A DNA stretch of 64,000 nucleotides from Marsupella aquatica (lineage: Eukaryota; Plantae; Marchantiophyta): positions 22,215,722 through 22,279,721 of the forward strand of contig OZ316896.1 of the NCBI GenBank assembly GCA_973895155.1. The letters run 5' to 3'. The translations under genes and the position numbers were made by a program. Every line of letters starts with the position of its first letter. The first letter of the stretch is position 1. Shown here in pieces: positions 16,061 to 64,000 of the stretch. The notes beneath the pieces are model-generated. The model was not told where the DNA came from. It saw nothing but the letters and a program-made list of their open reading frames with translations, and searched no databases.

Positions 16061-16870
16061 AATTACTGCTGTAGGTGTGTCAATGAATGGAATATACACC
16101 GTGGACGGAGGAGATTGGAATGTGAGGGGTTGAGCACGGGAGCGATCGTGAGCAGCACCATCTGCTGCTGGTGTGAGGTTGATGCAGAAGAAGTCGTCAG
16201 CTCCTACAGAGTCCCGTTAAACGGCTTCGCTCGCCGTTCAGAGTCGTCGCGTCTCTCTTTCTCTCTGTGTCCTGGACAAGTACAGATCGTCTGTCGCGTC
16301 GCTGAGGAGGTGTACCAATTTTCCACTTGATGAGGACCTTAGACGAGGCTTGAGGTTCCAGCATTGTGCTCTGTCGCGCGGCCTTTATTTTTTGGTTTCT
16401 CATCGGAGCTGCGTTCTGATTGACGATCTACAGGCAGGGCATTATTATCGCTCTAGGAGGGTAAGGGGGTGCTGAGATTTATGGTGTGAATTTGAGCGCC
16501 TGATCCACTCAGGCGTTTTGTTGTGATCCTTCTGGAGCCAAATGAGAGGTTTTTCATTGTCTCTTATGAGGATACGGAGCTCAGAGATTCAAAGCAGTGG
16601 TGGAGAATTTGTCATCGATCGGTTCTGGACAATTACGTCAGTGAGGGTTGAGAAGTTGATTACGACGACGGACTTCTTCCCGCCGCAGCCAGGGCATGAT
16701 ACTGTAGCATATGGTTTAAATTCGCGGCAACAGCAGAGAATTATCGTCACCATCATCAATCCGAGTTTTCCTTCGACAAGTCGTTCAATTTCTGGAGACC
16801 GCTAGCTTGAGTAAGCTCTGAATGCACTGCGGAGGACTTCTACGCTATAGCAGCTCGTCAAAGAGTCGGT

Positions 16871-19800
16871 ATGGACCACCAGGTTTTCCTGGTCAGGCCC
16901 CCCGGCTTGACAAACGTGAGAGGAGCGCCCGCCAGGGGTGTGACGCGGCTCCTTCGAGTGGAGGACCATGGCATCATTTTGACGAACTTGACACCACATC
17001 CAGGGCAGCCGCTGGAGTACAGCTTCGAAAACTTGGCTAATGTCAGAGCTTCAAGCGAAGACAGTAGTGAGCTTTCTGTTGACTTGCTCGATAGCGGCAC
17101 GACGCTAAAGTTCTCCACTGAAGCAAGACCTGCTCTTCTCACTGCTCTTCATAACCGACTAGATGAAGTCAACGGCATTGGTAAGTCAGTGCAATCTTCT
17201 GAGCATTTCTAATCTGTTTCACTTATGTCACAAATGCTGACCCGTGCTTCTTTAGTAGAAGTCAGCCACCCTGGCCGACTCACTAGCTGGGTAGCCTGGA
17301 CGCTTGCTTATGTACTTTTGCAGGTATCAGCATTAACAAAAATATCTCAAAAATAATGATTTTCTTCGGACGATGATGCATAAATTCTGGTCACGTTCAT
17401 TCGCCACTCTCCCAAAAATCTTCCGACGATTTATTAAGATCAAAACAGCTCTGATCTCAATTCTCAAGAGATACCATTTTGCAACGCTGCATTTTAGCGG
17501 ATGGCTATCGTTCCCACCTTGAATGGAAAGAAATGGTGTCGGCAATCCTTCGTGGACCTCTTGGGCTGGAAGAATCATCGATTATGCTTAATGTTATGGA
17601 TCCACTGTAAGTTGCGGTAGCCCGAGGAAATTCACTCACGGCGATCTCACACTACAAGCGTTGAGGGCTGGACGGTACTTGACACTACAGCGAAGGACCG
17701 ATATGCTATAAATATTTTCCTGAGGATGGGACTGTGCGTGTGGCATTTTGAAACTGTTCCGATCTTCCCTGCATCAGTAGACGAGCTCTAGGTCGATTTT
17801 TAATCCTGGGGAGGAAGGAGATTATCCAGCGAAAAGACACAATGCAGGTTTCCCGTGGGCGGGGGTTGGGAGATCTGGAACATATTGGAGCGGTTTCATT
17901 TTTCGAAGGAATTACCTGGAGTTACTCATAAAGTGCAGAAGGGAGGGACTGGACAAAGAAGGCTGTTTAGCAGCTACTGCTATTGATGCATTAGCTACAT
18001 TGCCTACAACATTGCGGGAGATCGTTTTGTTGACCTAGAGGAGCTTGAAAGCTCTGCCGAACCTCTTCTATAGCAGTGTGGAATTTTACTCGCGATTCCT
18101 TCAGAAATCCCGCGGTCCTGACATTCTTTTCCCGATGCTATGGCCTCGAGCGCCGGAGCAGCTTTGATCCCAAAGCTGCCCTTGGAGGGCATTTTTATGT
18201 CAGATCTGTGGAAAACATAATTAATGGGATTCTACAATGACGCATTTTATTTCTGACGATGATAGACAGTGTCTTGCATCTACCGGTGTAGTGAACTGTT
18301 TGTGTGTTCGTGCAGTCTAGATCTCTTTCAATGTCATGGCAAGAAGTAACTTTCAGCTCGAGGTCCGCTGGATGGACTAGCAGGGTCGGTTGGGGCTCTT
18401 CAATTTCCAGAGAGGGGTGCTAGATTTTACTTTGTATTGCAAATAAGTTGTTGAGAAGAGGCTGAATTTGATGGGAGGGTTGTAGATAATATGATTCCAT
18501 GATGGATAATATCATTGCGTCTCCTCTCCTTTAACGAGAAAAGTCACTTCGATCTTAATGTTTGCATGAAAGTTCTCCACCAGGTCTGGTCGTTAACTTG
18601 CATTTGGCAACGTTGACTGCTTCTGCAGGCACTGACTTCTTTCTTCAAAAACATAGTAACCAGCGCGGTGGGCTAGCGGACACTGTTCTCCGCGTGCGTA
18701 GTGCCTCGCTTGTGAAAATGGTGAGCACTGGAGTCCGGCAAGAAAGACGAAAGGTAATCTTTTTTCTTCAAGACAGCTCATTTAGTGCACAAATCTCTCC
18801 TACAGGAGAAACTTTGACTATTCTGAAGTTCAGGTAGGTGATGCTATGCCGATCAGTAACAATATTGCCATTCACGTTCGTAATCTTTCGTGTGTAAGTG
18901 GTATGGTGAGGGTGGATACCGGAAGCAATGATTTACAGGAAGCTTCACATCTGTCAGATATCGTCTCATGTCATGAGGGTGACTGTCGTGCAGGTCAATC
19001 CCGCAAAGAAAGTGAATTTCGAGGATATCGTCAAGATGGAAACTCTTATTGATGATGAGCATGTTGCTCTTTTATATCTCAAATCGAGAGTGATGAGGCT
19101 CTCCTTGAAAGATTCTCTTCCTTTCTTACAGGCAGTACAACTCAACATGAAGGTGTGTAGAAAGGCTTTGTAGACCTGGATGTCACATTTGAGAACATTA
19201 AGAAAGGGTCGGATATTTTAGTACTGTTCGTTTTACAATTTGTTCGTTTGCATTCCGGCTCTGAATAACAATTTTTCGTTCCGAAGACTGAACAATCTCA
19301 ATCCTATCTATTTACTAGTGCGTTTGCTCGTATTATTTTGAGCCGAAATCTTGGACAGAAAATTTGGGGTGTCGGGTGTGCCGTCAGGCGGTCTTTGAAT
19401 TTTGTAACATTGTTTGATTGACAGATGTGTCTGAGCAAAGAGATGGAAATCGAAAAAATAACGACATCTGACATGGTTGAGAATGTCGCTGCCTACTTAC
19501 GGAAAGTTGTAAGTGAAACAAATTTTGTTGACTTGATTGCAAGGGTCCGTTGGGTACATTGCCTCATTTGGTTATGTTCTTTTGAATTTAACTGTGTGAC
19601 AAAACTTCATACGTATACAATGGAATGACATCAAATTTGTGTGTTACAATAGAGAGAATCTCCAGTTCTATACGAGTTTGAAGTTGTGAAACGTCTTGAC
19701 AACGCCAAGCAAGAGCGGGGGCGCATAATCTGCATCACCAAAGACTACTTTATTGAAAAATCGGGGGATGAGGTGATAGGCGTTCACAGGTAGCCAAGCC

Positions 19801-22800
19801 AGAGACTGCTCCGGTATTTTTCTTTTGGTCATTAGCGTAAGGTTGATGGACTATCAATGACAGTCATGGTAGCTTTCTAACATTTTGCGTCTCTGAATTG
19901 TACCGTAGTCACAATCACGTCGCATCAGCAGGTGGGATGTGAGAATTGATGAGGCATGGCTTCATGCATGCAGATTAGTATCAAGCGTAAAAACGTACAA
20001 CTTATTCATTCAAATCTTACATGTTTTTCTAATGAGTATTTACAAACTTTTGTTTGACATCGTGTGCAGTCTGAGTGATGTTCTAGGTGTAGTTGCCAAT
20101 GACAAACGTCCCAAAGACGTGATGCTTGAGCTTAAATCATGGAGAGCCACCCAATATCACATTGGGGAGAGGGATAACTTTATTGCTAGTATGGCCAGTG
20201 TGATGAATTCTGGGAAAGGTTCGGAGTTCAGCATTCGCTCGGAGCCTTTTTTTAGCTACACACTTCCTGACAAGTGCCATCCAGTCTACAAGGTCAGTAA
20301 ATGGAGTATTCTAATTTTTGTGTCTTCCGGTTTTCTTCTTGTTGTTTGCTCGTGTTGCATCCCTTGCTTTTGGGTTTAGGATGAAATCGGAAGTAGTTGA
20401 CATGCGAATGCTGAGATGCCACTAACATATTGTCTTGGACTGGAGAAAGGATTCTGCATTGCTCGCCCCTTCCTTTCTGAAATGAACCTGCTAACTGTAC
20501 ATATTTTTTGAAGCAGAGTGAGTGCGAGGCTTATTTTTTGAGTCGTTTCATGACGGTGTATAACAGCAGTAGAGAGCCACCTCTCCTGAATGTTTTGCTG
20601 AAGGAGTATGCGTGCAACTTAAATGTAAGTTTAGCTGTATTCTGTGCATGTAAGAATGGTTTGCAGTTCTTTTTGGGCTGTGGCTCGTCCTGACGGCACT
20701 ATTGCTTTCTGAGCATGTTTGTGAACTGAAGCTTGTCGTAGCTTTCCATAAAGGAGCTGTCCAGTGTATCACCTGAAAGGATTTCTATGGATATTCTAGG
20801 TTGGGGACTCGCAATGCGCAGATCCGAAGGTTTTCCAGGCGGTTACTGATGTCCTAAGGGATTGCCTTGGTAAACCATCTCTCCCTCCTTTTCATTTCAG
20901 AACTGTTTCCATGGTATGATTTGCGAAGTCTCCTGATGGAAATCTAACACCGAGTTGGTCTCCGACCAGGAGGTTCTGGACAAGATATTGTCTGCGCAAC
21001 AACTTGCTGCGTTGTATTGCAAAGACTTCTCGCATCAAAAGTATGTTTTGAAGCAGTTAAACAGATGCCTGATTTTTCAGCTCTTCTCGTTCTGGTAAGT
21101 TCATGTTACAGTAATCTGTTTTCTGTCCCTTTTCCAGGGGTGCCAGGCGTTCCCGTTTTGAGGGATGCTTGCAGCCCGTTAACCGTATGGATGATGTTTT
21201 GACCTCGAATGCATCGTCTTATGCAAGACGACTAATTTTGAGACCGGTCCTTTGACTGATACTGTTGTCATCCTTGACTCGACAGTGCATGCGATCAGAT
21301 AGTGCTGTATTGGCGTATCTTGCTACAACCGTTTTCAGAGCAGCCCTGAAGCTGAATTCGGATCAAGGAGGAGACGTGGGGAATGTCACTAGGGTATGCT
21401 TGAAACATTTTCCGGTAAAACTTTGAAGGAGGATTACAGTTCCGGGTATGCTGAGCAATCTGTAGAGGATTTGGCTTAGGGATTCGCTGGACCAAGAAAT
21501 CGTTTCTAACCTTCGTCATGTAAACTGCAGCTCGAGTCAGCAAATAAGTTGTCTGTCTTAAGTGCCGACAATTTGCAACAACTTGTTTCCCTACTTCACA
21601 CCAATTCTCTGATTTCGTCTAATGTTCTTCAGGTACTCTGGCCTGCTTAAACTCTGAACTTCAGGTTTCTTTGACCTCGCATATGTTACTCGCAACTTTG
21701 TTTTGTTAAGCTTTGGAATTAATTTTGATCCAGATCCTCCTCCGAAGGACTTTGACTTCGTGGTCAGGATCTGGCCATTGGACTTATGACGTAATGTAGC
21801 CTTATCCGATTTCTTTTGATGTTCAGATTGTGGGTCTACTGGAGATTTTTACTCTAGCATTGAGTTCGCAACCATCTGATAGTGAGGCAGGACGGATGTG
21901 GATCAAGGTAAATACTAGGACATTGTGGTGTCAGGTGTGCTCGAGCTGATTCTCCCAAATCATAATTTCTTATCTACTCGTATAAATGGAACATGGTTTT
22001 GGCTCACATTGGGAAATTGCGTGGATGCATCAGGCATTCGAGTTTTCAGTCTTGGCTGCGGCTGATGTTCTTTGTACTATAAGCAGGTTTCCTAGCGCTG
22101 TCGTCTTCCGCAGGTATCTTCTTGTTACACTGTCCTACAAGAAATAAATAATCGAAGCGCTCTGATTCTGCAACATAAACGTGAGCCGATGCATACTAGT
22201 TACGTCACTGTATTATACCTCTCTAGGAAGCTGACCGTAGAGTTGAAATTGTTCAACTTTCTCCTGACAATTTTGTTATTGTGGCCAGTAACTCGGTGTT
22301 GTTGAAGGGTCTGCTTACTCAAACATCTCCCGTTACTGCAGGCCATTTGCAAGTACGTTCGCACGAAAGTATGAATTCCATTTGCATTTGAAAGACGTTT
22401 TGCAAAATTCGAGTGGACTTTGCAGTCTGTTCACGAGACTGAGCTGCTTGCTTCTGATACCTTGGGGTGTGATGTGTAACAATCTGTCGCAGAGAGTTTG
22501 TCTAGGAAAGTGTGTGGTCCTTCTGCACCTAAAAAACGCTATCTTCTCAAAGAAACAAGAAACAAGAACGTTAAGTGGCACACTGGTTTACCTTATGTTG
22601 GAAGGTAGTAGAGATGCACGGAAGCTGCTGGAGAATATTCTTCCAAAGGTGGGGTTTATTTCTGTTGGCAAGTATTTACTCAAAAGATTTGATTTTACTA
22701 TTCTTGAAACATCGAATTACAGAATCTAACTTGTCCTTTTTGGTTGAAGGGTGTAATGCTGTTATATGCAACAAAGATCACGGAGCTGTTATTTGCTTCT

Positions 22801-25800
22801 AAGGTATGAAAATTTGCCGGCGTTCTAGAGAATTTATGGCCAAATGAATTTTGTTCGTATCTAGATGCGCCACCATGCATTAGTAGAGGAAACATTTTGT
22901 TGTGCACGCTATTCGTTTGAGCCGTTCAATTTCATCATTCGAACAACTAGAGTTTTTCAGTGTGCCTAAAATTTTGATTTACACATAAGTAGTTGTTTGT
23001 GATTTCAGGAAAGGACCCCTAACAAATTCCCTGCATGGATGGAGGTCCTGGAGATGTTGCGTTTGCACACTCTAGAGACACCTGGTTTGGTGTGGAATGA
23101 CATCAAGAGATCGGAGCTTCAAAAGGTACTCGAGGAACTAAACTGAGGAAATAACGTGGGGTTGTGTATTTGTCACTTTCTCGTAGATCATTGAACAGAG
23201 AACGGAAGTCCACTGAACTTTGTGATCCAAGATACGCAGAATGGTATAGAAAATGTACTGACAGCTGCCATTTTGTTTTTCTCGTGGCACCAGTTTCTTA
23301 AGGATGAGGTGGAAGGATATGAAGTTGCATCAGCAAAGAATCGTGACTTACTGTATAACAGTGCAGATGTGCAGCTGGTCTACTCGAGTGCGAGTGAGGG
23401 TGAAGGTAAGACAAGTTTGTGACGTTTGACATTGTGAGATAAATCAGCTTGAATGCTTGTTGGCTCCTCTTTGGTGAGAGTCGAATCTAGTTCTTTCCGC
23501 TTTCAGTAGATTGCAGCCTTGACGTCAGGGGTGATTGTCTGGGTTCATCAGGGTTGCAATGTGGATCACTCTTGCAGGTTCTGTCATTGGAGGAATCCAC
23601 CTGGAACTCCTTGTTGATCATTCCCCTCCTCCAGACAGTCCGAACAGCAATTTCTGGAAGGTAGTAGTGGGTCTATTCAAAAGCAAGGTTCTTGTGTGTC
23701 GTTCGGATGCTTAGCACAAAGACATTTTGCTTGATTTGTTTTTAAAAGTTAATCATAGATAGCCGTAGTTTGAATAGCTTTTGTGAAACACATTGCCTCA
23801 GGGTTTTCCGAGTCCTTTGGGGCACGCGAAGGGACTTCATCATCCCATCCCCCATTTTAATACTGCCAGATCCATCTTGACCTGTGATAGGATTCAATTT
23901 CAACTGTCAACAAGCAAGGAATTCTGGATTATTGAATTGAGCAAAAGAATTCGGTGCCTTTGGTATCAATCTTCAGTGTCTATCTTTGTGATCATATTGC
24001 TCATTTTGCTGAGGACTCTCCGTGACTGATTGACTTACTGACTGACTTGATCTTGGGCTATGATTTGCTGAGCAGCTGAAAAATCCTCTATCACTTTTCC
24101 AGTCAGTATTCCAGGCCATGGTGCTTGGCTTCACACCTCTATTTGGGCACAGTAGTTTACCGGAGGTTGATCTTCGGCTGGCAGCACATGCTTTGACGTG
24201 GCTGTATGAAAAATACGCAGAGCAAGTTTCCTTTGGCGTTGAGACGTTAAATGTCATTGAGGTATGATAATTTAGATTCTCTCTTTGCTTTGACCTCTAC
24301 ATAGACTTAAGCTGTTAGTGTTTAGTCTGTCTGATGATGCCTGGGGAGCGGGATGTTTGTCGGTTGTCACATAGCCCCGGAATATTGAACATGTTTTCAA
24401 AGTTGTATCCTGTCAAGTCTGTCGTGGATTTTGCATTTTCAATCAGGTTTGAACATTTCTTCGCTTTGAATGACATAGTCTATATGCTTATTTATGAAAA
24501 ACACCTGCTTTTAACAATCTTCCCGCCATTCCCCCACTCCCTTCCTTTTCCTTCCCCTGTGGCGGGCCCTCGTTTTTAATTTTATAAGAAAAAAAGCACC
24601 CAAGGTTCTTCGGTCGCGTTAGTCCATCACCAAAAGAACTCCTGCGCATGGAAAATGGTCATGAAAATACTATAATTTCCTTGCAGAAGGATGATTCCTA
24701 TTGCTTGTCAATTTTATCTGCAGACAGCTGTTGGAATGCTGCGGGAAGTGTATGAAACCGAACATCAGGTGTTCGTCTTCAAGCTGGTTGTGTTTCTTCT
24801 TACTACGGCAGAGTTTGGTGGGCAAGATAATGTACTCCGCTTTATACGAGCAGGGGGTGCGACTGTTGTTGTTCCTTTGGTCGTTCTTTCACTAGCCAAG
24901 GTGAACATGATGCCCTTTCATGGGTTTGAGCTTTGGTCCGGTGAAAGCAAATTTATGTTCCTTTCTTATATCTCAAAACTTTTCTCAATCACGTACACCT
25001 GAAACTGTTGGTGTTTGTTATATGTAGTGCTGCAAAGAATCACATGCTTTTGAGTGCGACGCGTGGAATTCCAAGGACACGAAACTTCGTGGTGCAATTG
25101 AAACCATCAAAGTTACTGGTGCCGATGGGGAAACACGGCTCGTACGCATCCCCTCTGGAAGGGCTCGAGAAGTCCTTGACAGAGCTGTGCAAGATGGTAG
25201 TCTAGACGCCAAAGAGGCAATCAAGTGGCAGGATGAGAAGGTTCCAGATAAGGTCCAGCTGGGCTTGGCTCTGGATCTATTGGAAGCTATATTGAGGTAT
25301 CCTGACAACATAGAGCTGAATGAGATCTGCCCTGAAATTTGTTTGGTTGTTTGTGTCAAGAGTCTCGTTTGCGTATACGGAAAGGAAATGGGAGGCAGAG
25401 CCTATTCATGATGGCTGACAATGATGTTAAATTTTTGTGATACAGGCATTCTGGAAGTGATGGCGATGTAGAGCATTTTCCACCATCTGCCGTTGTGACT
25501 TCTTTGTCCAGGGAGGAGATCTTTTGTCACTTAGTGCAGACTCTTCTGCGTGCAAAAACTCCAGTTCTTGGAAGGTATGCAACATGCAACTCTAATCTGT
25601 CACTGAATACTTTGATCAGAACTGCAACGGCTTTACAACATTTCTGCTCTGCGCATGGTCACAGAATAGTTTCCTTTTGTGAAAAATTTCCTTTTAAATG
25701 GTCTTTCGTGTCTCCTAATATGCTCAAGGAAGAAAGGAGTTGCAGTGATCTGGATTGCAAGGAATTATGTTCGATTGCATATTTTTCTCTTGTTTGCGTA

Positions 25801-28800
25801 CTGAAGATTTTTGAGAGGAGTTTCATGAACATGGGTCATCTTGGTTGACAGGATTTTGGAAATAATCACTGCCTTAGCAAAGACAAACAAGAGTGCAATG
25901 TCGAGGCTTTACAAGATGGGTGCTTTTGAGATCCTTTTGTGGAAGCTTCTGGCAGGGGATGTCGTTGAGAACGATAAAGTTTTAATTGCAAAGTTCCTGC
26001 AGCAGAGTCACCTTCACCAGGTGATTTGCCAATTTATTAAGTGGGGCTGCTGTGAACCTTTTTCATTTTCCCTGATGTCATCAATTTTAAGCGACGATCA
26101 ATGTTTAAGACTCTTTTGTGTGAGAGCCATGTGTTGGTTAGCTGCATTTATGGTTCACGTTGTAGTTGAATGCTTTCGTCGTTTTCCCAATCAAGTGTTA
26201 CCGCGGTACTTGGTTAGTTCGTACTGCCACACATCCTGCCTAAATCATAGTATTATTAGATCAGTCTCGCTAAATCATGATTGCTTAACAAATCCTGTCT
26301 ACATTGATGGGCAGGATCTTGACTCCATTCCTAACGGGACAGGGAAGGGTCATGAGCGGGGACACTCACCCTGGGAAGACAGCATTCTGCGCCTGTATCT
26401 TCCAGAAGGACTGATCTTGAAGCTCATATCAGAGGTTTGAGTCGTTCGTTTTGGCATGGTTCTTCTTGCCCTGGCATCCATTGCAACAAACTACTCTTAC
26501 AGAAAGGTTCTTGAAGCATTTCATTAGTCAATGGCATAGTGTATTAGCTTTAACTGTAAAGTTTTTGAACTTTCACAGGGGCCACAATCATTCGTTGCAC
26601 TCATCAATTCTGAACAAGATGCTCCAGAGGTTATTTGGAATGCGGAAATGAGGAAGCTTCTGCTGGAGCATCTTACCAACGAGCTAGAGCCGTACGTTAA
26701 ATTTCGAGCTTCAGATCCCTTGGCGTTGTACATTCATATGCCAAGGTCTCCCTTGGTTTATCCAGAACTTGCTGGTAACGACATAATCCAAAAGTTTATG
26801 ACTTTTTAGTCTTCGACATCTCACTTCGCTTCCATTCGTGTGAGAGCCTACTTTTGAGATGAGCGGCTCGCATGGAAGGATCTTGTGTGAACCATAGTCT
26901 TTCGTTGGAGCATACTTTTGTGTCAGACAGGGTGCTTGAAGAAAATGTCAGGCATTAACATTTTCCATTATGGTAGCAGATTCGGTTTTTGCTGCACCAT
27001 TTTACTTGCAAAACTTGCTGGATGACAAACGCTTCCCAACATACCAGATCAATGATTCAGTTGGCTTCTTCAACAGCCTAATGTTGGTGAGTGGTTCTTA
27101 ATGATCTGTGTTATGGAAGAGAATTTTTTCCATGTTATCTTACGTTTGGTAATAAAGGTTGATGCGGCCTGCTGGCTGGTAATTTTTTCTCACGTTTCGA
27201 TTTTCATTTCTTTGCTTTTACTTTCGCCATGACAATATGGTGGGTCTGGTTACTGGCAGGATCTACGGAAATCTCTGGCAACCGTGTCAAACGGTTCCCC
27301 AGCTGGATCTGGCGGAGCCTTGTGGCGTAAGGAGATGCCCCGAATACACCTCTTACTTCAATCTCAGGTCCTACAGTTTGTTTCCTTAATACGCAGATTT
27401 GGCTCTCCTGCTTTGTTATCTGTTGTTCTCAGTTGAATCAAACGATTCATGTATTTTCAACTTTACATGACATGAAGTTTTGGTGACGTTGTATTCGCGT
27501 CTTGTCCTACTTGCAGGCTCTTTTGCTAGAGCGATATCCTCAGCTGGTACTACCTAGTGATCTGGAATCGACAGCGATAGGTCTTGCCAATCCTGCACTC
27601 CGAACTTCGCTTGCTCAAAAGGATGAAGTTCCTCTTAGTGTAACAGAGATTCTTCAACAAACAACTAGAATTCTGAAAAGATTTTGCTATGTTTGTACCA
27701 GGTAAGAACTCTTCTGGCCCCTACATTTGAAGTACAGAATCGACACTGGCAACCTGACTTTGGACAGGATAGGGACTCGTTGGTTGTGCTGGGAATGAAT
27801 GAATTTAAAATCCACGGGGAATTAAATGGGTTATACCAAAGGTGGAGCTACTTGTCTTGAGAAACACTGCTTTGGTCTTAAGCATTACCTCAGCTTCGTG
27901 TAAGGATCGCTGGGCGCTGATGCTGTTCACGAATTGATCACGTATCTTCTTGCAGAGAAGGTGAAGTCCCAACTGCTACTCTAAATTTTTCTCTCAGCGT
28001 GCTGGGACTGGGACCAAAGCTAAAACACGACGTTGAGGAGAACAGCAGTAGTACTTCGAGTCTCGAATCTGCGGTCGCAGGTTCTCTTTTTGTGCTCGAG
28101 CTTGCCTCCTCAACAAGGTAATACAAATACGATACATCCAGTAAATCAAGTTGAAGATCGCAGTGCGTTGGGTCCAATAGCTGTAGTGAAGTTATTGATC
28201 AGTTGTTATGGTTTTCAGGAAAGGGAGGGAGCTTTTGCGGGATGATATTAGATGGAGAAAAGGGTTCTGGTGGGCTATCTGCACAGCCGCTAGCGATGCT
28301 GCAGCTGTTCCCCCAAGAGGCCCTAGCCCAGTCTCCTTTGCTGCCTTGGGTTGTCTTAAGCACTTTGCCGAAGATGAACAATTTTGCGATCGTATCATGA
28401 AGCAGGTGTGTCTTTGGTTGCGGGAGAACTGTCTTCTCTCTTCTAGTTTGGCACGCGTGACTGCAATCGATTATTGTTAGAACTGATCAATTTACCATCA
28501 CTCTGTCGTGAAGTTTAAGTAAGGAAAGGAAATCTCTCTCTCTATATATATATATCGACTTTGAAGTTCATCCTGCTCAATAGCTGCACAATAAATTACA
28601 AGTCGGTGGCTAACTCATAAGCAAAGACAAGTCCTTGATTTCTACAGCATTTGACCGATGAAAATGAAGTTCACATTCGTCACGATGGCTTCCATTAACT
28701 CTTGGTCCATGTTGGCAGGCTTTGTATATTCCTTTGCTTCTGCTGGCAGTCCCACCTGTTGATGCGGCTGTGAAGGCTCAAGATTCAAAGTCTGCGCTAC

Positions 28801-31800
28801 TCTACTCCGCAGCAGATGTTCTGGGTGCTCTTGTCCGGATGCTAGATCAGGCAGGGGGGTCTAATCCTTCTGAACGGCAGAAACTGGGACAAGGCGTTAT
28901 CTCCAGACTGATTCCAGCTCCCTTATTGTCATGCTTACAGCAAGAAGAGGGAGTGGAGAAATTTATCAATTTGATAGCCTCAGATGTTGTGGAACCCTTG
29001 GCGTTGTGGACAGCCGAAGTCCGGACCGAGCTCCGAACCCGACTTAGTGAACGCCTTCAACAGCATAATGCCAGTCTTGCCTCCGGGAGTGCTCCATCTG
29101 GGGATGAGCTTGAGTGGTTGCAAAGCTTTCAGTACGAGTCCGTCAAGGGAGAGCTTATTGTAGGTGGTCTGTTCGTGAAATCCGTCGCGGGTGGACAATG
29201 GGGAAGCTCCAGTTTACCTGCTGGTCACGAATTTCTAGATGGCATAATGGAGTACTTGGCCGTCACCCAGGAGGTTTTGTTTGTACAGGACAAGGAAGTT
29301 GAAAAGAGGGAAGTTGGAGAAGAGAGAAGAGACATTGAAGATGAAGAGTCGGTGAAAAAGGAAAGAGAAGAAAAGGAGCAGGCAGCTGTTGCAGAATACC
29401 TCACGGTTTTGGCTGCTCTTAGAGAAGGGTTGAAGTATGCCATCAAGTGTGACAGAGGCGACATCCTTGAACATGTGCAACCCTCAGCTCTTGCCAAGAT
29501 TGTAGTGGGAGGCAAAAGCCATCCAGAGGCATGTGTTGAGATTTCTACTATTGTGAAGGTGTTAGCTGAGCATAAGCTATCCAGGGATGCAATGCTACGG
29601 TCTGAACTGATGCAGGCTCTAACCGTGCAGCTATGGCAAGCTGCGACATCTAGTGGTGAGGAACATCTGAAGGAGGATATTCTGATGGAAACTCTTGATG
29701 CATTCCTCCTCCTAAGTGAGAGAATTCCCGCTACTTTGTCCGCCACCAACTACTTTGCCAACTGTGGAGCGCTTCTCCCCCTTCTGGCAATTTTCTGCCA
29801 TGTAGATCTTCCCAGCCTGGATGGAGATGATATTGGCATTTCAACAGCGCAGAATATACCCTTCGAAGGGAGACTGTTGGCTGCCCAAACCTTGGGCCAG
29901 CTTTTGTTGGCTGGCAGTGGAGTGAGCCGCCGATCCAAGTTGCTTAATGATATTTCCAAACAGAAGATGTTGCTAAATGGAAATGGCTCAGCGAATGGGC
30001 ACAAGACGACTCATGAAGGGATTGGGGAAGCAACAGATATGTATCAACTCGTCAATTTGCTTGAGCCCAGCTCTGGTGGTGACAAATCAGAACCACTAGT
30101 CATAGCGACATTGCTTCTTCTCCTACCCGTGGACCTATTATCCACTTTGGCCAGGGACCCACAGGGAGGTTGTAAGGCTTATGATGGCTCTTCTCAGTCT
30201 CCGAGACTGGTATGGGACCAAGAGACCCGAACTCGTGTAAAAATTGTTTTGTCCAAGGAAGCAGCAAAGGTGCAGGAGGTTGTGAAGACAAAAGGGCTGG
30301 TGGCTATGCCTTCATGGTCCTTAAGCAAGCGACGACCTGCGTTCTTGCGGAGTATCTTAGTCACCATATCGGACAATGAAACAAGGCCATTGTTCAGGGA
30401 TGAGGCTGGAGACGATTATGCACTCGAGATGTATCTAGGTGGCTTTTTTGTGGACCAATTTTTGAGAGATCCTGGCTATGATTTTGGCAAATTGCTTGAG
30501 GAACGATTCTCGCGAGAGATCCGGAAGGCTGTGGTCATAGGGGCGCCTTCTGATGGATTCAATGCATATGAGTTCAGTTTTGATGACAGGAGACGGCTTC
30601 TCCTTGCCTTGATCTTACTATTCAAAGGGCGCCCAGCTCTACTCTCTGGACACTCTAATCTGGATATATTTTTCCCAGTTTACGAGCTTATTAGTAGTGG
30701 CAGTGGGATGGAAAGACGCGCTCTATCACAAGCCGCAATGCTTTTATTTCATTGCACAGCTAATAGTCCAGATATTGCTGATTGTATGAGTTCCTCGGAA
30801 CTGATCTACACGTTGGCAACTTTCCTGGAATTAAAAGTTCCTCCCTCAGACGCGGGTAGTGCGGGAACGGATCCCAGATTATGCAGCCTCATGCTATTGC
30901 TCCGCCTGATTCGCCTCAGCAGTGCAACAGTAGAGATAGCTCTCAAACTGGGTTTCGTGTCAAAGGTAGCTGACATTGTGCTCAATGTTGATGACTCGGC
31001 CGTTGTTCGGCAACGGGCAGCGGAGTGTCTAGCAGTTATGTGTTCGGACAAAAGGAGGGGCCATGAGGTCACGAGATTGTTGGAAAATCTCGTTCCTCAA
31101 AATGCTAAAGGATATGGAGCATGGAATATACCTTTGGGCAACATTCGTGAGGAATCTGTTGACTCGAGAACTATGAACCATTTTCTGCGATATCGTTTCC
31201 CTTGCAGTTGGTGGACACTGGACACCCCAGAGGGAACCACGGTAACTGAAGTACCAGAGCCCATGGGCCCCGTCACCGTTGTTGATGCAACTGTGACTTT
31301 CCCAAATGGAAAGCTTTCTCACTTCAATGACGATGCCGAGGGTGTGTTTAAAAGAAGTATTGCGGCAATGGCTAATGTCGAGATCCGAGATGTAAATATA
31401 TTAAGAAAGCGTGCCGGGAGCTTAATGATTGACTTCCAAGTTTTTTTCAGGCGTAGACAAGATTCTGGAAGGACATATCATTATCGTGAACCTGAGGTAG
31501 AAGCTCGTGCGTTTAAAGAGAAACTAGAGAGGGAGGGGACGAAGTTGTTTTCAAGTCGATTCTTTGAATCAATGGGGACACCTAGAGTGACATCAATTGC
31601 TTTGAATCACATCGCCAATAACCTTCAGTCGTCCCCTCTGAAAAGCAACTCTCTCCCAAGCGAGGGAAGCGTTGGGAATCCAACCGTTCAAATAGTGTAC
31701 ATGGCTGCTGGTCAAGCCCCACCCTTGAGAACGAACAGCACAGGAAAGGATGTGAATGTCATATATGTGCAGGGTAATCCAACGTCAGAGCAGCTTCTGA

Positions 31801-34355
31801 AGGCATCTGGGATAGACTTTGGAGATCAGGGGAATTTTGTGCTCCCACAGCAACCTCAAATAGTGTACCAGCTTCCTCCGGGCAGCACGGGGTCACCTCA
31901 ACCTCAGGTCATTTACCAAGCTTCACCGGGGCAGTCGTCAATGCTTGGGCAAGCAACTGGATATCTACCACAACTTCAATCATCTGTAGACATGTCGACT
32001 GTCATTGCTGCGAAGCCCCAGCAAGTCCCCACTTTGGTATCGGAAAGTAGAGGACATCCTCCTTTGTCTCAGGACATCTATACAAATGGTTTTACATCTT
32101 CCTTTCCAGATTCATTCTTGCCAGGATTGCAAGGCTCTCTCTCGCCCGCGCCATCTACTCCCACACGTACACCTTCATTGCCTACAATGTCATCTCCACC
32201 TTCATCCCTACCATCTTTCAAGTCGTTGCCCAGCATATCTCCCTTCTCCTCACCACTTCCCCCATCCTCCAATAGAAGCAGTATTCCCAGTGCTGTATCT
32301 CCACCAACACCACCACTACCTGTTGCACCTGCCAGAGCATCCCCTCCTCCAGCACCTCCGGTCTCAGGTATACGGAGTCCACCACCTCCTCCGCCACCCC
32401 CAGGTGGAGCTTCTCGTGGTCCTCCACCACCTCCACCACCCCCAGGGGGAGCTGCTCGAGATCCTCCTCCTCCACCTCCACCACTCCCAGGGGGAGCTTC
32501 TCGAGGTCCTCCTCCACCTCCACCACCCCCAGGTGGAGCATCTCGAGGCCCTCCTCCACCTCCACCACCCCCAGGTGGAGCATCTCGAGGCCCTCCTCCA
32601 CCTCCACCACCCCCAGGTGGAGCTTCTCGTGGCCCTCCTCCACCTCCACCACCTCCAGGTGGAGCTTCTCGTGGCCCTCCGCCACCTCCACCACCACCAG
32701 GTGGAGCTTCTCGTGGTCCTCCACCTCCACCACCCCCAGGAGGAGCGACTCGTGGCCCGCCTCGACCTTCTCCATCCAAATCAAGTACTCCACCTCCTGC
32801 TTCAATGAAAGCAGCCCCGCCCCTACCACCCTCAGAAATGCTTCCCGTTGCAGGTAAGTGTGCACACTCTCTGCGATGCTTTAACTTGGATGTAATGTGG
32901 TGGATTATTTAAATGAACTTTTCGTCTCTCAAGGCTATTTCAATGTTGCTACTGTTGCAGATCTTAGGCTAATGCTGCGTTTGTCCTTTTCCAGACACGG
33001 GTGCCTCAAAGAAAAATGGTTTCATGGTTAAGTCAGAAGAAGGAAAGTGAGTCATCGATACTGAGTACTTTGGACATTTTTTCTCCGCCTAGTTGATAGT
33101 TGTGATAGTTTAAAAGTGGATTCTGTTATTTTATTATGAAGATAGTCATCAAACGCTTTGACTCACAGGCTGATATGGTGTTTCCCTTACTTTTGCAGAA
33201 TGGTGCCTCTAAGAAAAGCCATTGACCTGGTTTTGGAAGGAGCTGACATAACGGATGAAAACAAAGGACTTGCCACAGTGAATTTTCTAGAAGCATTTGA
33301 AGAAGGTCAGCTCAACCCCCAGTTTCTCTGTGCTGAGGATATGTTCATCCATTTCCTGGCTGACATGCAATCAAAGTGTGACGTCTTACTTTTTTCCTAT
33401 TTCTCGTGGTGGGATGACCAGATGAGGAAGAATTAGGGAGAATGCTAGAGAACTATCCAAAGCTTGTACAAAAATATGCTCTACAGCCACAGCTCTGCTA
33501 CGATTTGATGTGCGTTTGGGAAGAGCACTGCTTGGATCTAATGCTGCCAGAAGAGCTGGTAAGTGAAGTAGACTTCGTGATTTCGAAAGCATTGGAATTA
33601 TATCTATTCGAACTGCTGTTTTATGGCAATGACTGTGTGTAGCTGTTAGATTTAAGTTGTAAGAACCATCGCTTAGATCTTGCATTGAAGGTAGTCATTC
33701 TTATTGAAAAATTTGTGATATCGACTTTGTTGCAGGCCAAGTACAAACGGGGAATTGCAGCATTCGATCTTTGCAGATTAGATGATCCTGTACAGGCTGT
33801 TCAGGAAGCGAAGAAGAAGTTTGCAGGAATTCTGAAGACGCGGAAGTAAGTTTTCTGGATTCTCATCTCACCTATACTATGATTTTTACCACGAAAATTT
33901 GATGCAAATGATGGAAATGCAGTGGCGCTAAATGTTTATAGACACTTATTTGTAGCCAATTACAACATTACATATTTGGTTCATGTTACCGGACTGATGA
34001 CGATGGCTGTTGAACGACCCAACGCAGAGAGAAGGAATGGAAAGAGAAAAGTAAGCAGATAAAGGGAGACATGTCTGCAGAACTGGCCAAGGCTGTCGGA
34101 GGACGAAAGGTAATTTTTTTGTGGTTGTTATTTTTTGGCACAATTTTTCTTGCAGTATTCCCTAGCTCCTTAGTTTGAGAAACCTAACCACTGAGTTGTG
34201 TTTATATGCCTGATTTGAGACTAGTTTTTAAAGCAAGCCCTCGGACTTTTGGTGTTGTGCAGGAGAAGATGAATTTAGAGAACGCTCAGGATGAGTTGAA
34301 GGCAATGTCAAAGGGGAAGATCCAGAAAAAGAAGAAATCACAAGCTGGGTCATAA
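16871..34355 (+). CDS. Divergent RME-8/DNAJC13/GRV2-like protein lacking the J domain, with C-terminal SEA-like module, polyproline region and putative WH2/C-like tail; ~38 exons, ~3,000 aa (hand count)
   Basis: RME-8-like segments in order: LKFSTEARPALLTALH; YEFEVVKR...GRIICITKDYFIEK...ERDNFIASM; LQRLLASK; four IWN-type repeats PGLVWND (~23080), PEVIWNA (~26630), PLALWTA (~29000), PRLVWDQ (~30205), each followed by a (V/I)GG.(Y/F/H)L-like motif; SILRLYLPEGL...YPELADSVFAAPFYLQNLLDDKRFP. A 4.1-kb exon spans 28719-32853. The last exons (32995-33046, 33199-33305, 33422-33558, 33736-33845, ~34028-34109, 34263-34355) splice with consistent phases to TAA at 34353-34355. Confidence 0.88.
32375..32765 (+). 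repeat. Coding tandem repeat, ~42-bp unit encoding PPPPPPPP-GGASRG, nine units (FH1/WASP-type polyproline region)
   Basis: Read directly in ORF 28722..32912. Confidence 0.95.
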
Positions 34356-36968
34356 CAGTCTAGCCCAAGAGGTTGACCTGCAACCTGGGCTGTATGTCAG
34401 AGCACATTGTTTTAGCGCATTTTGCCAATTTGTAGGTGTTACCCTATTGGTGAATCAGAGTACGTGAAAGGAAATATTCCCGAGAGATAGGGCTCCAATT
34501 CATTGCGAGACAGTTCTAGTCAAGCTATTCTAAAACGTAGCAGTGTTTAGTGTGTAAAACGTAGTCAGAATGTAGAATCTATTCTTGAGGCGGGGTCATT
34601 TGATGGATCTGAGAATTCAAAGGAAGAGTTTATTTTTTAATAAGGCTGAAGCCTGAAGCAACTGCAGTTTCTCCCTTCGGAGATCATATTGAGTAAACTA
34701 CAATTTTGACGGGAGAACCCATCTTTGATGGGGAAACTATTGTGTGGGCCAGCTTTCCCCGGTAGGGTCCGAATCGGTTGAGCTCATTGTCACACTACCT
34801 TCGCCTCTCGTTGTGTCAAGTAGGAATTTCATCTGTTGGAATGAAATGGAGTGGAATCGAACGGATTTGATTTCATGCAACGATTTTGAAGGTCAGAGAG
34901 CTCCAATTTTGCAAACATCTGTCAGAGCGGGAGTGTCTTCGTCAACCGGGTGGTGCATATGTGCAGCAAAAGCATAAACACTGATTCGAAGGTCTGCATT
35001 CTGTTTACCTCTGACAGACAACAATTCTACTTTTCTTTCGTGTAAGAGTCCTCCATCAGGAGCCACAATCATCACCTCAATGGCGATTTCAATTTCAGTT
35101 TGCCAGACATGCTTTGTTACTGTATGTTTTCGCTCTGAATATCTTGGTCAACTTGGTCACTACCGCAAACGTTTACCCACTGATTTAGACCCCCAAAATA
35201 GCCTTGAATGGCCACCCTGCAAGTCTTGAAGCAAGTGAATAACTTTTTGTGATCAAAGATCGCAAACCAAGTTACTACTACCCATAGCATGTCTAGTCGA
35301 CCCATCCAAGAGATGATGAGCGGCCAACAGGGAAGGCATTGAAATAACCCGAAGTTCAAAAAAATGTAGACAAGAGCAACTTACATGGTTACCAACCCTT
35401 CAACCACTTCGGACACTTTCTCTTTGTATTTGCTGGATGTCTTGTATGACAGTCATGGAGGCATGTGTTACGTTCATAAACTTGGAAAAGATGACTTTTT
35501 GTTTATCAAGACTAATTTGTGTGTAGTGAACTGAGCTATCATAATCAGCAATGTGGATTGTCCTGAACATGAAGTATAACATCTTATCTGGCCAGTAACA
35601 TTTTATATGAACATCATGTTTACGTGATAACATCTATTTTCAATTGGGCAAATGCTTTTAATTTGTATTCAAAAGACTTGATATATACCCTCCATTGCTC
35701 TCTGCATAACTCCAAGATATGGATTCCTCCTACGTGACAGAAAGACTGGTAGCTTGGCGACTGCATGGTTGTAGACTAATTGAAAAACGTCTATTAATAG
35801 GATTTATGTAAATTTTATGGGTTTATTTTTAAAACAGTGAACCACCGATACATTAGTCTTTTTACATGAAAATGGTTGACTATTCCTAGAACTAATTTAT
35901 CTACAAGGAATTTTGTAAACCACCTTTTGTATGTCTTAGTTTACTTGTGGCTACACTCTTACCATGGCATGGGTGTTTCATCTTTCCACTCTGAATATAC
36001 TCTTACCAGGGTGGACCTCTCTCTTGTGCATGGAAGTAAATGCTGGCTTTGGACATCAATCATGGAGACATAGTGAGAGGTGTTGCTAACAACGAGAGGT
36101 CCTGCTTCCAGACACTTTGGTCCAAAAATTGCTTGCATTTACGTACAGTCTACCGTGTCTAAGTGCAGGCTCCCGGGACCCCAAGCCTGCAGTTATCCAC
36201 GTTATGCACTTCATCATAAGTGCATGGTGCACTTTTCCATATGTGTCTGTTGCACTTTCCAATAAATGTCTATGAAATCACTAATGCACTTCCACAAATG
36301 TCTTGTCAGGTCATATACATAGACTTCTCATACCCAGAATACTCATAGTGCACGATTGAACTGAATAAGTGCATGAAACTACAGTGTAGTTGTTTGTTGC
36401 ACTTATCAATAAATGCTTCTATCATATGTGTTGCAGTCATTGATTAATGCATCTATACTCTTATAGATGGAAAATGCCCTTATGTATTTGTCGTTTAGTG
36501 ACGGACGACCTGCACTTACAAACGGTGCATTTTTTGGTGCATTTACAAGGAATTTGCTATAATATTGAGGGACGACACAAACACCCTGCAGTTACCCATG
36601 GAATGCAGTTATACACGCTGCACTTAGACACGGTAGACTGTACACAGTCACAAGGGTACTAGCTTCCAAGGGTAAAGCATGAGAGCATACATGCCATGGG
36701 GTCCACAAACTAATTTCAATTAGAATCAGCTTCCAAGACCGTATAAAATGTAGATCCTTGCCTATGATGTAAGAGTTGCATCCCCGGATTTTTCCTATGT
36801 CAATGTGGTTCATAGAATGTTCCAATTCTAGTAGTCTACTTGTCTGCCAATCTATAGTGAAAGTCTGGCCATGCATTGATTTTTACACAAACTTTCCTGC
36901 AAGTGGCCTGACAAAAATTAAGCTAGATAGCTTTCTATCTAGCTTGCAAGCGGTTCCGTCGTGAATTC

Positions 36969-39950
36969 ATGGAAATTCAATCTAAAAAAACAAGTAAACA
37001 AATAACAATAGAGGATCTTCGCGCAAAAATATTATCGCTGCGCTCCTTCGCTGGTGGCTGCCTAACTGGAAACAACCTCACTGAGTTGCGAGAGGCGGAG
37101 GTTGCTCTTAGAGATTCTGAGTTCCGAGAGGCTATTGAGCTTCGTAAGAAATCAAGGATTCGGTGGCTGGGGCTCGGGGATGCCTCTACTAAATTCTTTT
37201 TTAATATTGTTAGGATCCAACAGCAGCGAGCCAGGATTCCTTGCCTTCGTCTCTCGGATGGCACATTATCTCACAACAAGGATCTGGTCCTCATAGAAGT
37301 TGGAAACTTCTACCGTTCACTCTATTCCCCGGATGCCCCGGAAACTCAGCTCAATGTACAAGCTAGAAGGAAAATGCTTCGGTTCTCCTCCAAACGAATC
37401 TCTCAAGCAGAATCCAATCAGTTAGACGCAGCCCCTTCTATGGATGAACTCTTTTCAGCAGCCAAAAAGATGAAGAAAAATAAAGCCCCAGGCCTAGACG
37501 GCCTTACAATAGAGGTCTTTTTGGGGTGTTGGGGATTCATTGCGCCAGCCTTTACCGGCATGATCTTATCTTTCTGGGCAGACGGTATCATGCTACCAGG
37601 ATTTATAGAGGGAGTAATAAAGCTGGTCCCACAATCAACTGATAAAACAAGATTGACGGATTGGAGGCCAATCACTCTTCTGAATATAGCATATAAAATC
37701 ATAGCAAAGCTGATTGCTATCAGGCTCGGGAGAGTTCTGCCAAAGATGGTAAACCCTCAACAAACAGGGTTTGTTCCTGGGCGTCAGATTCTTGATAACG
37801 TTTCTTTGGCATGGTTGGCGATAGACTGGATCTCAACAAATAACGTGCCTGCTCTATTCATAAAAATGGATTTTTCAAAAGCATTTGACCGCGTAGACCA
37901 CCGTTACATCAGGGAGACTCTCAGCACATTAGGCCTGAGCCAATCGCTTACTAGGAATATCATGGGTCTAATGATGCAAGCAACTGCTAAGGTTCATGTC
38001 AATGGGTTATTCACGGAACCCATTCCTCTCATGCGGGGAGTCCGTCAAGGATGTCCCCTCGCCCCTCTCATCTATGCATTATCGACACAGCCTCTCATGG
38101 ACGTCTTTGACGCAGCCCTACAGGCTAATGAACTGCAGGGCATTAAAATAAATAACAAACTCACTCTGTTTCATAGATTCTTTGCAGACGATCTAGGAGT
38201 TATCACCCCTGCTAAGGAATCTAGCTTCTTGGATATATGTGGAACGATGGACTTATATGAGCATGCAGCAGGGGCACGCCTAAATCTGGAGAAGACCGAG
38301 GTTCTCATTTTATGCATAGACACTCCTCCGCAATGGTTATTAGATACCAAATGTGTAATCGTTCCTATGGGCCATATATCCAGCTACTTGGGTGCCCCGA
38401 TTGGACAATATCTATCCAAGACCCAACTACATGAATATTGCCTGAAAAAATTGAACAAAAGACTCGCTTCTTGGTCGAACAAAAGCTTCTCATTCACGGG
38501 TCGTGTCCTGTTGGTAAAACAGGTCTTGTTATCCATGACAGTATTCCATATGATGTATACTAACTTCGCAGTGAGTTTTACAGACATGATTCAACGGACG
38601 TGTAAGAATTTTCTATGGGGTTATAACAAAGAGGGAGCCAGGAAAACACCATTGGTTTCCTGGGACCGGATGTGCGCCAGTAAACAAAATGGGGGCCTCG
38701 GGTTCAAGGACATAAATCTTCAGGCCACGGCATTGCTGGCCAGATGGGCCATTCGGATGATATCAGACCAGGATTCAGACTGGGCGATATTATTCTCGGC
38801 CAATCTCCGCCTGGCAGCATGGAAAAAGACGGTGTTGCTTCGCCAAGCAGGGTACACCACCATGGATCGGTTCCTATTCTCCTCCCCGTCCAGCTTTCGA
38901 GGTATGGTATACACGGCAGGTATATGGAGGGCATGGAATAAGATCAGGATCAACTTGCACTGGCAGTCTGGCTCACAAGCCATTCCAGCAAGATGGAGGA
39001 TCGAGGACTTTCTTCCTAAATTTTTCACCTCCTCAGACTTTCCTATCTCTTTGGTTCCTAGGATTATCATCGCCTGTTATCGTCTAAATATTCGGTATGT
39101 CTCTGACCTCTGGATGCAGGATCCGGGCTGTTGGGTGGACTTTTTGCCTCGTCTCTCCAGGCTGCGGGGGTTTGGGGTCATAGAGTTAGACACTCTATCT
39201 AGGATCATTTTGTCTATTCATAGCGGCCCTCCACCTTCCATTTCTTCTTCCTTCGCCGGATCCCAATGGTTCTGGTGTGGCCTTCAAAATCATCGCAGAC
39301 CTCATTTCCTCAGCAGCATGCAAGCTTATAATTTCCTACACCAGGCTGGGGGAGACATCGGCTCTCTTAACAATCGATGGGGGACGTCAGACTCCGCAGG
39401 AGATTGGGGGCGCAGGTGGAGGAGGATCTGGCGATCAGATCTGTCTAATCGTGGTAAAATCTTTTTATGGCGGGTCCTGGCTGCAGGATTATTTTCAGGA
39501 AAACGAGCTAAGCAGTGTGGACATGGAGATGGGATGTGTCCATCCTGCCCGGATCGGGTGGAGGATAATCCTCATATTTTCTTCTCCTGCAGGCAAGCTA
39601 TTTGTGCTTGGAACCGGACTGCCTGGTTCTATGAGCGGGTGCCGTCTCTCTCCCTTCTTCCAGGGGGACATTCTTTCACAAGCACATTGGACCTTGCCCT
39701 TGGTCGTACCCCACGGCTATCTGCTCGTATTTTTGTTATCTATGAAACCGTGTGGCTCCTATGGAAAAATAGAAACTCTCAGTTGTTTCAAAGCCAAACT
39801 GTAGTCTTCTCCCCCTTTCTGGCCGCATCATCTGTCGTTCAGCATCTACGTTCGGTGGCTCTTTGTTCAGACTCAGAAAAAAAGAAAAATCGTCTATACT
39901 ATGCTGAGAAGTATATCTCTGGTCCTCTGACCTCTCGTTGTCCTCGTTGA
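36969..39950 (+). CDS. LINE ORF2 remnant: reverse transcriptase plus C-terminal zf-RVT; endonuclease lost by 5' truncation
   Basis: WLGLGDASTKFFF, KAPGLDG, WRPITLLN..YKIIAK, QTGFVPGR.I.DN, KMDFSKAFDRV, RGVRQGCPLAP, FADD, YLGAPI, GGLGFKD, CPSC....E...HIFFSC. Uninterrupted 993-aa frame that stays open upstream to the insertion junction. Confidence 0.96.
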   Translation: MEIQSKKTSKQITIEDLRAKILSLRSFAGGCLTGNNLTELREAEVALRDSEFREAIELRKKSRIRWLGLGDASTKFFFNIVRIQQQRARIPCLRLSDGTLSHNKDLVLIEVGNFYRSLYSPDAPETQLNVQARRKMLRFSSKRISQAESNQLDAAPSMDELFSAAKKMKKNKAPGLDGLTIEVFLGCWGFIAPAFTGMILSFWADGIMLPGFIEGVIKLVPQSTDKTRLTDWRPITLLNIAYKIIAKLIAIRLGRVLPKMVNPQQTGFVPGRQILDNVSLAWLAIDWISTNNVPALFIKMDFSKAFDRVDHRYIRETLSTLGLSQSLTRNIMGLMMQATAKVHVNGLFTEPIPLMRGVRQGCPLAPLIYALSTQPLMDVFDAALQANELQGIKINNKLTLFHRFFADDLGVITPAKESSFLDICGTMDLYEHAAGARLNLEKTEVLILCIDTPPQWLLDTKCVIVPMGHISSYLGAPIGQYLSKTQLHEYCLKKLNKRLASWSNKSFSFTGRVLLVKQVLLSMTVFHMMYTNFAVSFTDMIQRTCKNFLWGYNKEGARKTPLVSWDRMCASKQNGGLGFKDINLQATALLARWAIRMISDQDSDWAILFSANLRLAAWKKTVLLRQAGYTTMDRFLFSSPSSFRGMVYTAGIWRAWNKIRINLHWQSGSQAIPARWRIEDFLPKFFTSSDFPISLVPRIIIACYRLNIRYVSDLWMQDPGCWVDFLPRLSRLRGFGVIELDTLSRIILSIHSGPPPSISSSFAGSQWFWCGLQNHRRPHFLSSMQAYNFLHQAGGDIGSLNNRWGTSDSAGDWGRRWRRIWRSDLSNRGKIFLWRVLAAGLFSGKRAKQCGHGDGMCPSCPDRVEDNPHIFFSCRQAICAWNRTAWFYERVPSLSLLPGGHSFTSTLDLALGRTPRLSARIFVIYETVWLLWKNRNSQLFQSQTVVFSPFLAASSVVQHLRSVALCSDSEKKKNRLYYAEKYISGPLTSRCPR

Positions 39951-63800: not shown

Positions 63801-64000
63801 GAAAATACCCCTATGGGGAAAATCATTAAAGAGACTCTTTTCTCTACCCATGCGGGTTTTACGTAACTCAAATTGAATGTTTGCATAACAATGCACAACC
63901 AAGCGAATTGCCCGCGCTTGGCATGCACGCCTTGGCCACCCCGGTCAATCCATGCTAAGCAAAATTATTAAGAATTCACGAGGCATTCCAACCAACATAC
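60869..64000 (+). mobile_element. Ty1/copia LTR retrotransposon, Bianca-like lineage, degenerate; 5' LTR ~60869-61157, PBS 61158-61169, gag-pol from 62356, runs off the window
   Basis: TG...CA-bounded ~290-bp LTR candidate (left end uncertain) with a TATA-like motif at ~61126, followed by CGTTATCAGCAC. Coding motifs are listed in the next feature. Confidence 0.88.
62356..64000 (+). pseudogene. Disrupted copia gag-protease-(pre-integrase) polyprotein
   Basis: MANLEKLTFSALEIDGNNYLEW (Bianca-type gag start), ELWTTLKTRFDHQ...LPRARQEWLNLQVQDFTSISTYNSELFRITS, LLEKTLSTFH, zinc knuckle CHECGMTNHLAYNC (~63278), protease CIIDSATTHTIL (~63513), RNLLSFRDIRANG, WHARLGHPG (~63919). Several stops and frameshifts. 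Confidence 0.9.

Follow-up and report, generated by a model that had tools for sequence, protein, structure and literature searches.

The 64,000 nucleotides (nt) of Marsupella aquatica DNA analyzed here (contig OZ316896.1, positions 22,215,722 to 22,279,721; hereafter the window) contain a gene of 38 coding exons at 16871-34355 on the plus strand, which encodes an RME-8-like protein of 3002 amino acids (aa) from which the J domain is absent. The gene is a second, separate paralog of RME-8 and not an altered GRV2, and it belongs to a conserved family of J-less RME-8 proteins that is real and apparently undescribed; a literature search, with most subscription journals outside its coverage, returned no description of such a paralog. 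The exon model is coordinate-based and was guided by the closest database protein. All of its introns have GT..AG ends, many of them are seen as joints in spliced contigs, and the frame ends in a single terminal stop. The protein is 94% identical to Calypogeia fissa CAM6112927.1 (P0003) across aa 1-2601.

The site of the missing domain is exon 28 (27260-27367, aa 1218-1253, phase 0 at both ends), whose translation is exactly the 36 residues given in an earlier note on this DNA. That note stated that counterparts of the two ends of the exon (WREEL and PWRLLLLLKGQ) flank the J domain in RME-8. These anchors are indeed found in plant GRV2 proteins, and the window aligns to both; its flanks score above 998-1000 of 1000 shuffles against each of five canonical proteins. 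The anchors lie 27 aa apart in the window, as against 83 in a mosquito protein and 95-108 in five green-lineage proteins, and 56-81 residues are therefore missing. As the earlier note had stated, no HPD motif is present near the exon: none occurs in the six frames of 26900-28800, and the sole HPD in 15800-35000 lies on the minus strand, directly after a stop. The Pfam DnaJ scan that the note proposed matched none of 25 open reading frames of the window; the same profile matched none of 22 relatives and both of two mosquito controls. A hidden Markov model built from 72 canonical RME-8 J regions, which gave E 1e-25 and 1e-23 with its controls, found no match in the six frames of the whole 64-kb window, in the gene model or in 28 relatives (best domain E 15).

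A J exon that is hidden, skipped or lost in assembly would be an artefactual explanation, and the earlier note held the introns on either side of exon 28 to be too short and T-rich to hide one. The upstream intron (27087-27259, 173 nt) and the downstream intron (27368-27516, 149 nt) are both GT..AG introns with 42% T; the longest runs of codons without a stop in them number 47 and 38, respectively. Spliced contigs, taken from runs that are guessed to be RNA and come from related organisms, show the upstream joint in four of four runs. Both introns are skipped in three of three such runs, from three studies, with contig coordinates that are contiguous in the listed pieces; one X4 contig passes over exons 27 (26980-27086), 28 and 29 (27517-27701) as 1573-1676, 1677-1782 and 1783-1970, with no gap and no extra exon. 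A fourth run, X8, is collinear with the window DNA through both introns. In a minor, more divergent X1 contig the joint is interrupted by unknown letters, and this contig says nothing either way on an extra exon. Because contig assemblies may lose rare splice forms, a rare isoform is outside their reach, and the status of the runs as RNA is itself a guess. Against this stand the lack of a J signal in any frame of the window, the independent collinear run, and a small J-site exon, bounded by the same two intron positions, in each of the six other plant loci inspected (38 genomic loci were retrieved), so that an annotation or assembly artefact can hardly be credited and the loss is structural, as the earlier note had concluded. 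By score, 19 of the 38 loci are of the J-less type and 19 of the canonical type; a J match is present at 17 of the canonical-type loci, and of the remaining two one is truncated and the other (L030) carries a degenerate J. At L030:3600-4200 this canonical-type RME-8 shows a J-sized segment without HPD, split by an apparent intron.

The earlier note also described the center of exon 28 as a Gly/Ser linker of ~20 aa. AlphaFold2 was run on 603 aa of the C. fissa orthologue with 35 sequences (mean predicted local distance difference test score, pLDDT, 76), and its model instead predicts that one helix ends here and, after a turn of about five residues, another begins (pLDDT 69-88). Exon 28 corresponds to model residues 347-382, and the helices span residues 337-357 and 363-388 with a five-residue turn between them. 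When superimposed, model residues 335-603 fit armadillo-type repeats (4cru_B, Z 17.2, root-mean-square deviation 2.7, 214 aligned). Because a helix-turn-helix occupies the site and opens an armadillo-like solenoid that continues into exon 29, the J domain appears, from the model, to have been inserted between two helices of the solenoid, which is predicted to stay intact without it. The alpha-solenoid body is kept in the predicted models, of which the best structural matches are armadillo-like. Sequence searches of the PDB gave three chance matches at E 0.6-0.8 and none in a second search; Atlas searches gave generic armadillo neighbors and one RME-8_N cluster.

Two word-based searches retrieved 28 distinct J-less relatives. 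Those with names come from bryophytes (Calypogeia, Marchantia [MARPO_0060s0082], three genes of Physcomitrium and two Sphagnum lineages), vascular plants (Selaginella, Adiantum, Pteridium, two genes of Ceratopteris, Ginkgo, Cryptomeria and Taxus) and algae (Chara, Closterium and Mesotaenium); no named angiosperm is among the 28. Over more than 2200 aa the window protein is 72% identical to the Marchantia protein, 57% to a moss protein and 52-54% to proteins of ferns and gymnosperms. In 26 of the 28 relatives the spacer at the J site measures 23-32 aa, as against 88 aa in three mosquito proteins; the other two were unmatched by the pattern, the Selaginella protein being alike by eye and the Mesotaenium model being aberrant at the J site. 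In the latter record (P0005) ~760 aa of the C-terminal half are also repeated, which is probably a gene-model or assembly error. C. fissa has two copies, 98% identical, on different contigs (P0003 and P0014), and the Marchantia J-less protein bears the misleading database name "DnaJ homolog subfamily C member 13". The loss of the J domain is at least as old as the common ancestor of Chara, Zygnematophyceae and land plants. A link to flagella was considered for this range and rejected, the gene being present in Closterium, Mesotaenium and the conifers Cryptomeria and Taxus, which are not known to have flagella.

Bracken, Pteridium aquilinum, carries both a J-less protein (P0062, no DnaJ) and a J-bearing GRV2 (P0159, DnaJ E 4e-12, GYF_2), and the J-less gene is therefore a paralog; both types are also found in the genus Closterium, each in a different strain. 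Trees were made with 42, 29 and 21 rows, the smaller two after removal of 13 and 21 rows that were redundant or long; in them the J-less proteins come together as a single clade apart from green GRV2 (Shimodaira-Hasegawa-like approximate likelihood ratio test, SH-aLRT, 100), on a stem branch of ~2-2.7 changes per site. Nesting of this clade within the Closterium/fern/angiosperm GRV2 clade is rejected by the approximately unbiased test (p 3e-5 under LG+G4, 0.001 under a mixture model), and placement as sister to all green GRV2 withstands the topology test (p 0.27). The duplication is therefore probably older than the range of the family would indicate, though long-branch attraction may push the J-less clade outward in such trees. 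The earlier interpretation, of a loss in the organism's own RME-8, thus keeps its structural part and loses its subject, because the gene belongs to a separate, conserved and ancient paralog family. A recent deletion in the only RME-8 of this liverwort, or a decaying pseudogene, has a probability close to negligible, given an intact 3002-aa frame, splicing in relatives, a short J site from Chara to conifers and a clade apart from GRV2.

J-less RME-8 proteins also occur outside plants. With an N-terminal moss fragment (P0047) as query, HMMER gave 232 matches among 1.84 billion representatives; among the best 150 of these, 148 were new, 138 being nearest to the plant J-less family and 10 nearest to canonical RME-8. 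The ten include two long RME-8-like, non-plant proteins without a J domain, P0357 (1987 aa) and P0364 (2295 aa). In trees both join the J-less clade of plants, to the exclusion of 17 canonical rows (SH-aLRT 98); this placement carries a long-branch warning, which persists in leave-one-out trees. In both, the segment before the first IWN repeat is short as in plants, the plant insert at the GYF site is lacking and the acidic residue of IWN4 is retained. Either one ancient subfamily or repeated loss may account for them. The J-site deletion of P0357 (~aa 1130-1165) is even tighter, and this protein has no GYF insert. P0364 ends, at aa 2050-2295, in a Pro-rich stretch, a Pfam WH2 match (E 5e-6, above the cut-off), a central-like segment and an acidic Trp tail, the layout of an Arp2/3 activator; it is a candidate for an unrecognized Arp2/3 activator on an RME-8 body.

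FAM21, a partner of animal RME-8, is a subunit of the WASH complex. Human DNAJC13 binds SNX1 and FAM21, its J domain recruits Hsc70 for the turnover of SNX1 and clathrin, and an HPD-mutant form accumulates on endosomes (10.1101/2024.12.19.629517). The J domain and SNX-1 compete for the IWN3-4 region, and in Caenorhabditis elegans the IWN4 substitution E1962K weakens J-domain binding, while E1962K or E1962R strengthens SNX-1 binding (PMC9642905). All four IWN repeats are kept in the window protein in the order of RME-8, as an IWN1-type repeat (aa 687-691, 23081-23095), IWN2 (aa 1132-1136, 26624-26638), an IWN3-type repeat (aa 1524-1528, 28995-29009) and IWN4 (aa 1926-1930, 30201-30215). From the spacing in the C. 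nigoni protein, we infer that the counterpart of E1962 is the Glu that precedes the Asn of IWN4 by four positions. At this docking position the window protein has Arg (Arg1927), and its 28 relatives have Arg in 20, Lys in one, Leu in three, Cys in two and Glu in one, with one unplaced; in canonical proteins the residue is Glu or Asp in 61 of 61 placed, the method leaving 12 of 73 unplaced, 11 of them with Glu in the motif list.

With the J domain and its acidic IWN4 dock both gone, Hsc70-driven uncoating and J-based autoinhibition would be lost, and an open state would favor sorting-nexin binding and membrane residence. On the analogy of animal RME-8, the balance thus tilts somewhat toward the view that this ancient J-less paralog of non-flowering streptophytes is a membrane-traffic scaffold that does not itself recruit Hsc70; it would organize a recycling or actin (WASH-type) membrane domain and leave the chaperone job to GRV2. 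The earlier claim of an Hsc70-independent function holds in cis; as a blanket statement it goes too far, since the protein may contact Hsc70 via a partner or a mixed oligomer with GRV2. Such contact is the core of one alternative, in which the paralog is a regulatory decoy that tunes Hsc70-dependent uncoating in trans, through mixed oligomers with canonical GRV2 or competition for partners. RME-8 has been proposed to be autoinhibited in oligomers via intermolecular IWN-J contacts (PMC9642905), the four IWN repeats are kept, and both types are present in bracken. However, the acidic J-docking residue of IWN4 has been lost or changed to a basic one in 26 of the 27 relatives placed, and identity to canonical proteins is only ~20-30%, in patches; a decoy is quite unlikely.

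Other parts of the protein have changed as well. The K-H-S-W motif for phosphatidylinositol 3-phosphate (PI3P), which contains the W20 equivalent of the first PH-like domain, is absent from the window protein and from 28 of 28 relatives. Of 73 canonical proteins 23 have it, among them those shown from land plants, Closterium and Chlorokybus; this motif is labile among canonical RME-8 proteins (PMC9642905). Pfam GYF_2 matched none of 22 relatives, and some canonical proteins are likewise without a match. At the GYF_2 position the window gene has a degenerate insert (25028-25261, ~79 aa by alignment length), predicted as a beta-hairpin and helices (pLDDT 49-79). The segment before IWN1 is 29-70 aa in 10 J-less rows, as against 80-192 aa in 17 canonical rows.

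The C-terminal part extends beyond the region that matches RME-8. It includes an added beta-alpha-beta-beta-alpha-beta module (31278-31604, predicted in the moss relative P0043), which has no Pfam match; of 13 relatives tested, 8 have it at full length and one fern has no more than the first strand. Gly-Ser and then hydrophobic residues stand between strands 2 and 3 of this module, which is reminiscent of the self-cleaving SEA module, and fern records stop at the first strand. A Pro/Ser-rich region follows, with nine polyproline runs of 7-8 residues each (32379-32738), and exons 33-38 (32995-34355) encode a conserved, helical, basic module that is unassigned to any family, is lysine-rich and is 76% identical to the Mesotaenium protein over ~118 aa. 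The tail had no usable Atlas match, and armadillo repeats took up the results of fold searches with the C-terminal model, which therefore barely probed the module and tail.

These changes, together with a stem of ~2-2.7 substitutions per site, could also mean that the paralog has departed from endosomal sorting and is a streptophyte-specific scaffold, for example at the cell plate, at the cortex or on another organelle. The named J-less range matches the lineages that form phragmoplasts; angiosperms have phragmoplasts too, and no named angiosperm member was found. The domain and repeat order of RME-8 is, moreover, wholly kept, and RME, GRV2 and DnaJ are absent from the main text of a moss cell-division screen (PMC12708537). 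This reading is unlikely, though it deserves consideration.

A WASH- or actin-linked recycling role for the scaffold is hinted at by distribution. In plants WASH is reported from moss, Selaginella, conifers and a cycad; monocots have only probable pseudogene fragments, and eudicots have lost it (PMC3298513), a range that resembles that of the J-less family. Judged by analogy, links of the paralog to sorting nexins and to WASH and actin possibly exist. A broader version would make J-less RME-8 a deep-eukaryotic subfamily that ties endosomal membrane domains to Arp2/3-WASH actin rather than to Hsc70 uncoating, a subfamily that flowering plants lost together with WASH and that lives on in non-flowering streptophytes and here and there among protists, in one of them with a WH2-acidic tail fused to it; this is quite unlikely. 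The window protein does share polyproline runs ahead of a terminal module with WASP-family activators (WASH and WAVE) and with the FH1 region of formins, and P0364 has the Pro-WH2-acidic end. In contrast to those proteins, it has no Pfam WH2 or FH2 match and its tail is basic: the acidic Trp tail of the WASP family is not found in the lysine-rich tail of the window protein, FH2 was not matched on full-length relatives, and the gene ends ~230 aa past the polyproline runs. Nor is there support for reading the plant tail as WH2- or central-like, since its likeness to the P0364 tail does not exceed that of shuffles.

Several points weigh against the scaffold reading and its WASH extension. The IWN4 change amounts to a single event within a single clade, in which Mesotaenium still has Glu, and the loss of the PI3P motif leaves targeting to endosomes unassured. 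Coexistence of both types is known from bracken and not from Marsupella, any liverwort or any moss. The absence from angiosperms concerns named matches only, most representatives of the large profile search being unnamed fragments, and the likeness to the range of WASH is based on one 2012 survey and one shared loss. Several polyproline runs occur in liverworts only, among the 28 relatives, and records from ferns, conifers and Chara lack the C-terminal modules. Comparison of the plant tail with the tail of P0364 gave 396-1517 of 2000 shuffles that score as high, and the plant tail has no Pfam WH2 match.

The remaining parts of the gene follow the RME-8 plan. Exons 1-16 (16871-22803) encode the N-terminal region, with the PH-like part and the first solenoid, and Pfam RME-8_N (PF19432) matches aa 26-648 of P0003 (E 2e-37) and one window open reading frame (E 4e-5). 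Exon 27, which adjoins the J site upstream, is homologous by alignment to the pre-J segment of RME-8, and exon 29 encodes post-J solenoid. The 5' leader is covered by spliced contigs from ~16340; the first coding intron (17181-18628, +) is 1448 nt long, and the other 36 introns are 100-462 nt. Downstream lies a non-LTR (long terminal repeat) retroelement with a 1007-codon open frame containing RVT_1 and zf-RVT (36927-39950, +). The window also contains an open reading frame of the auxin-inducible (SAUR) family with a duplicated N-terminal segment (55801-56451, +), an IRX15/GXM-family fragment (3-605, +) and a beta-barrel fragment of a Pol polyprotein (63486-63866, +), likely an LTR retroelement remnant.

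Compared with RME-8, DNAJC13 and Arabidopsis GRV2 (KAM2), the window family shares RME-8_N, the four IWN repeats in order, the armadillo-like solenoid and alignable J-site flanks. It differs in lacking the J domain with its HPD, a recognizable GYF_2 and K-H-S-W, in the replacement of the IWN4 Glu, in a shorter pre-IWN1 segment, in extra C-terminal modules and in patch identity of only ~20-30%. The defining feature of a J-domain protein (Hsp40 co-chaperone), a J domain with HPD, is not found in the window protein, which is a variant on the RME-8 body that by this test lies outside canonical RME-8 and J-domain proteins. RME-8 homologues with mutated J residues are noted in PMC9642905 (Fig. 1 legend), in the covered passages of which no J deletion or paralog appears. 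Such homologues share with the window family an RME-8 body without a working HPD, but they keep a J-sized segment with changed residues, as at L030, whereas here the domain is removed. HPD-dead DNAJC13 and the C. elegans IWN4 mutants E1962K/R likewise share lost J activity and a basic residue at the IWN4 dock; they are laboratory forms that keep the PI3P site, whereas the window gene is a natural, long-conserved paralog.

In the canonical view, RME-8 is the J-domain protein of the endosome, and its function is explained via Hsc70. A J-less paralog of 2300-3300 aa that extends from Chara to conifers and is without the J-docking residue is a natural separation-of-function form, and a set of database proteins is wrongly labeled DnaJ. 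This is less dramatic than loss of the J domain from a sole RME-8, but it is more useful, as a separation-of-function gene in tractable models: a non-chaperone role of the RME-8 solenoid becomes directly testable in Marchantia and Physcomitrium. The paralog may also mark a trafficking module that flowering plants have lost.
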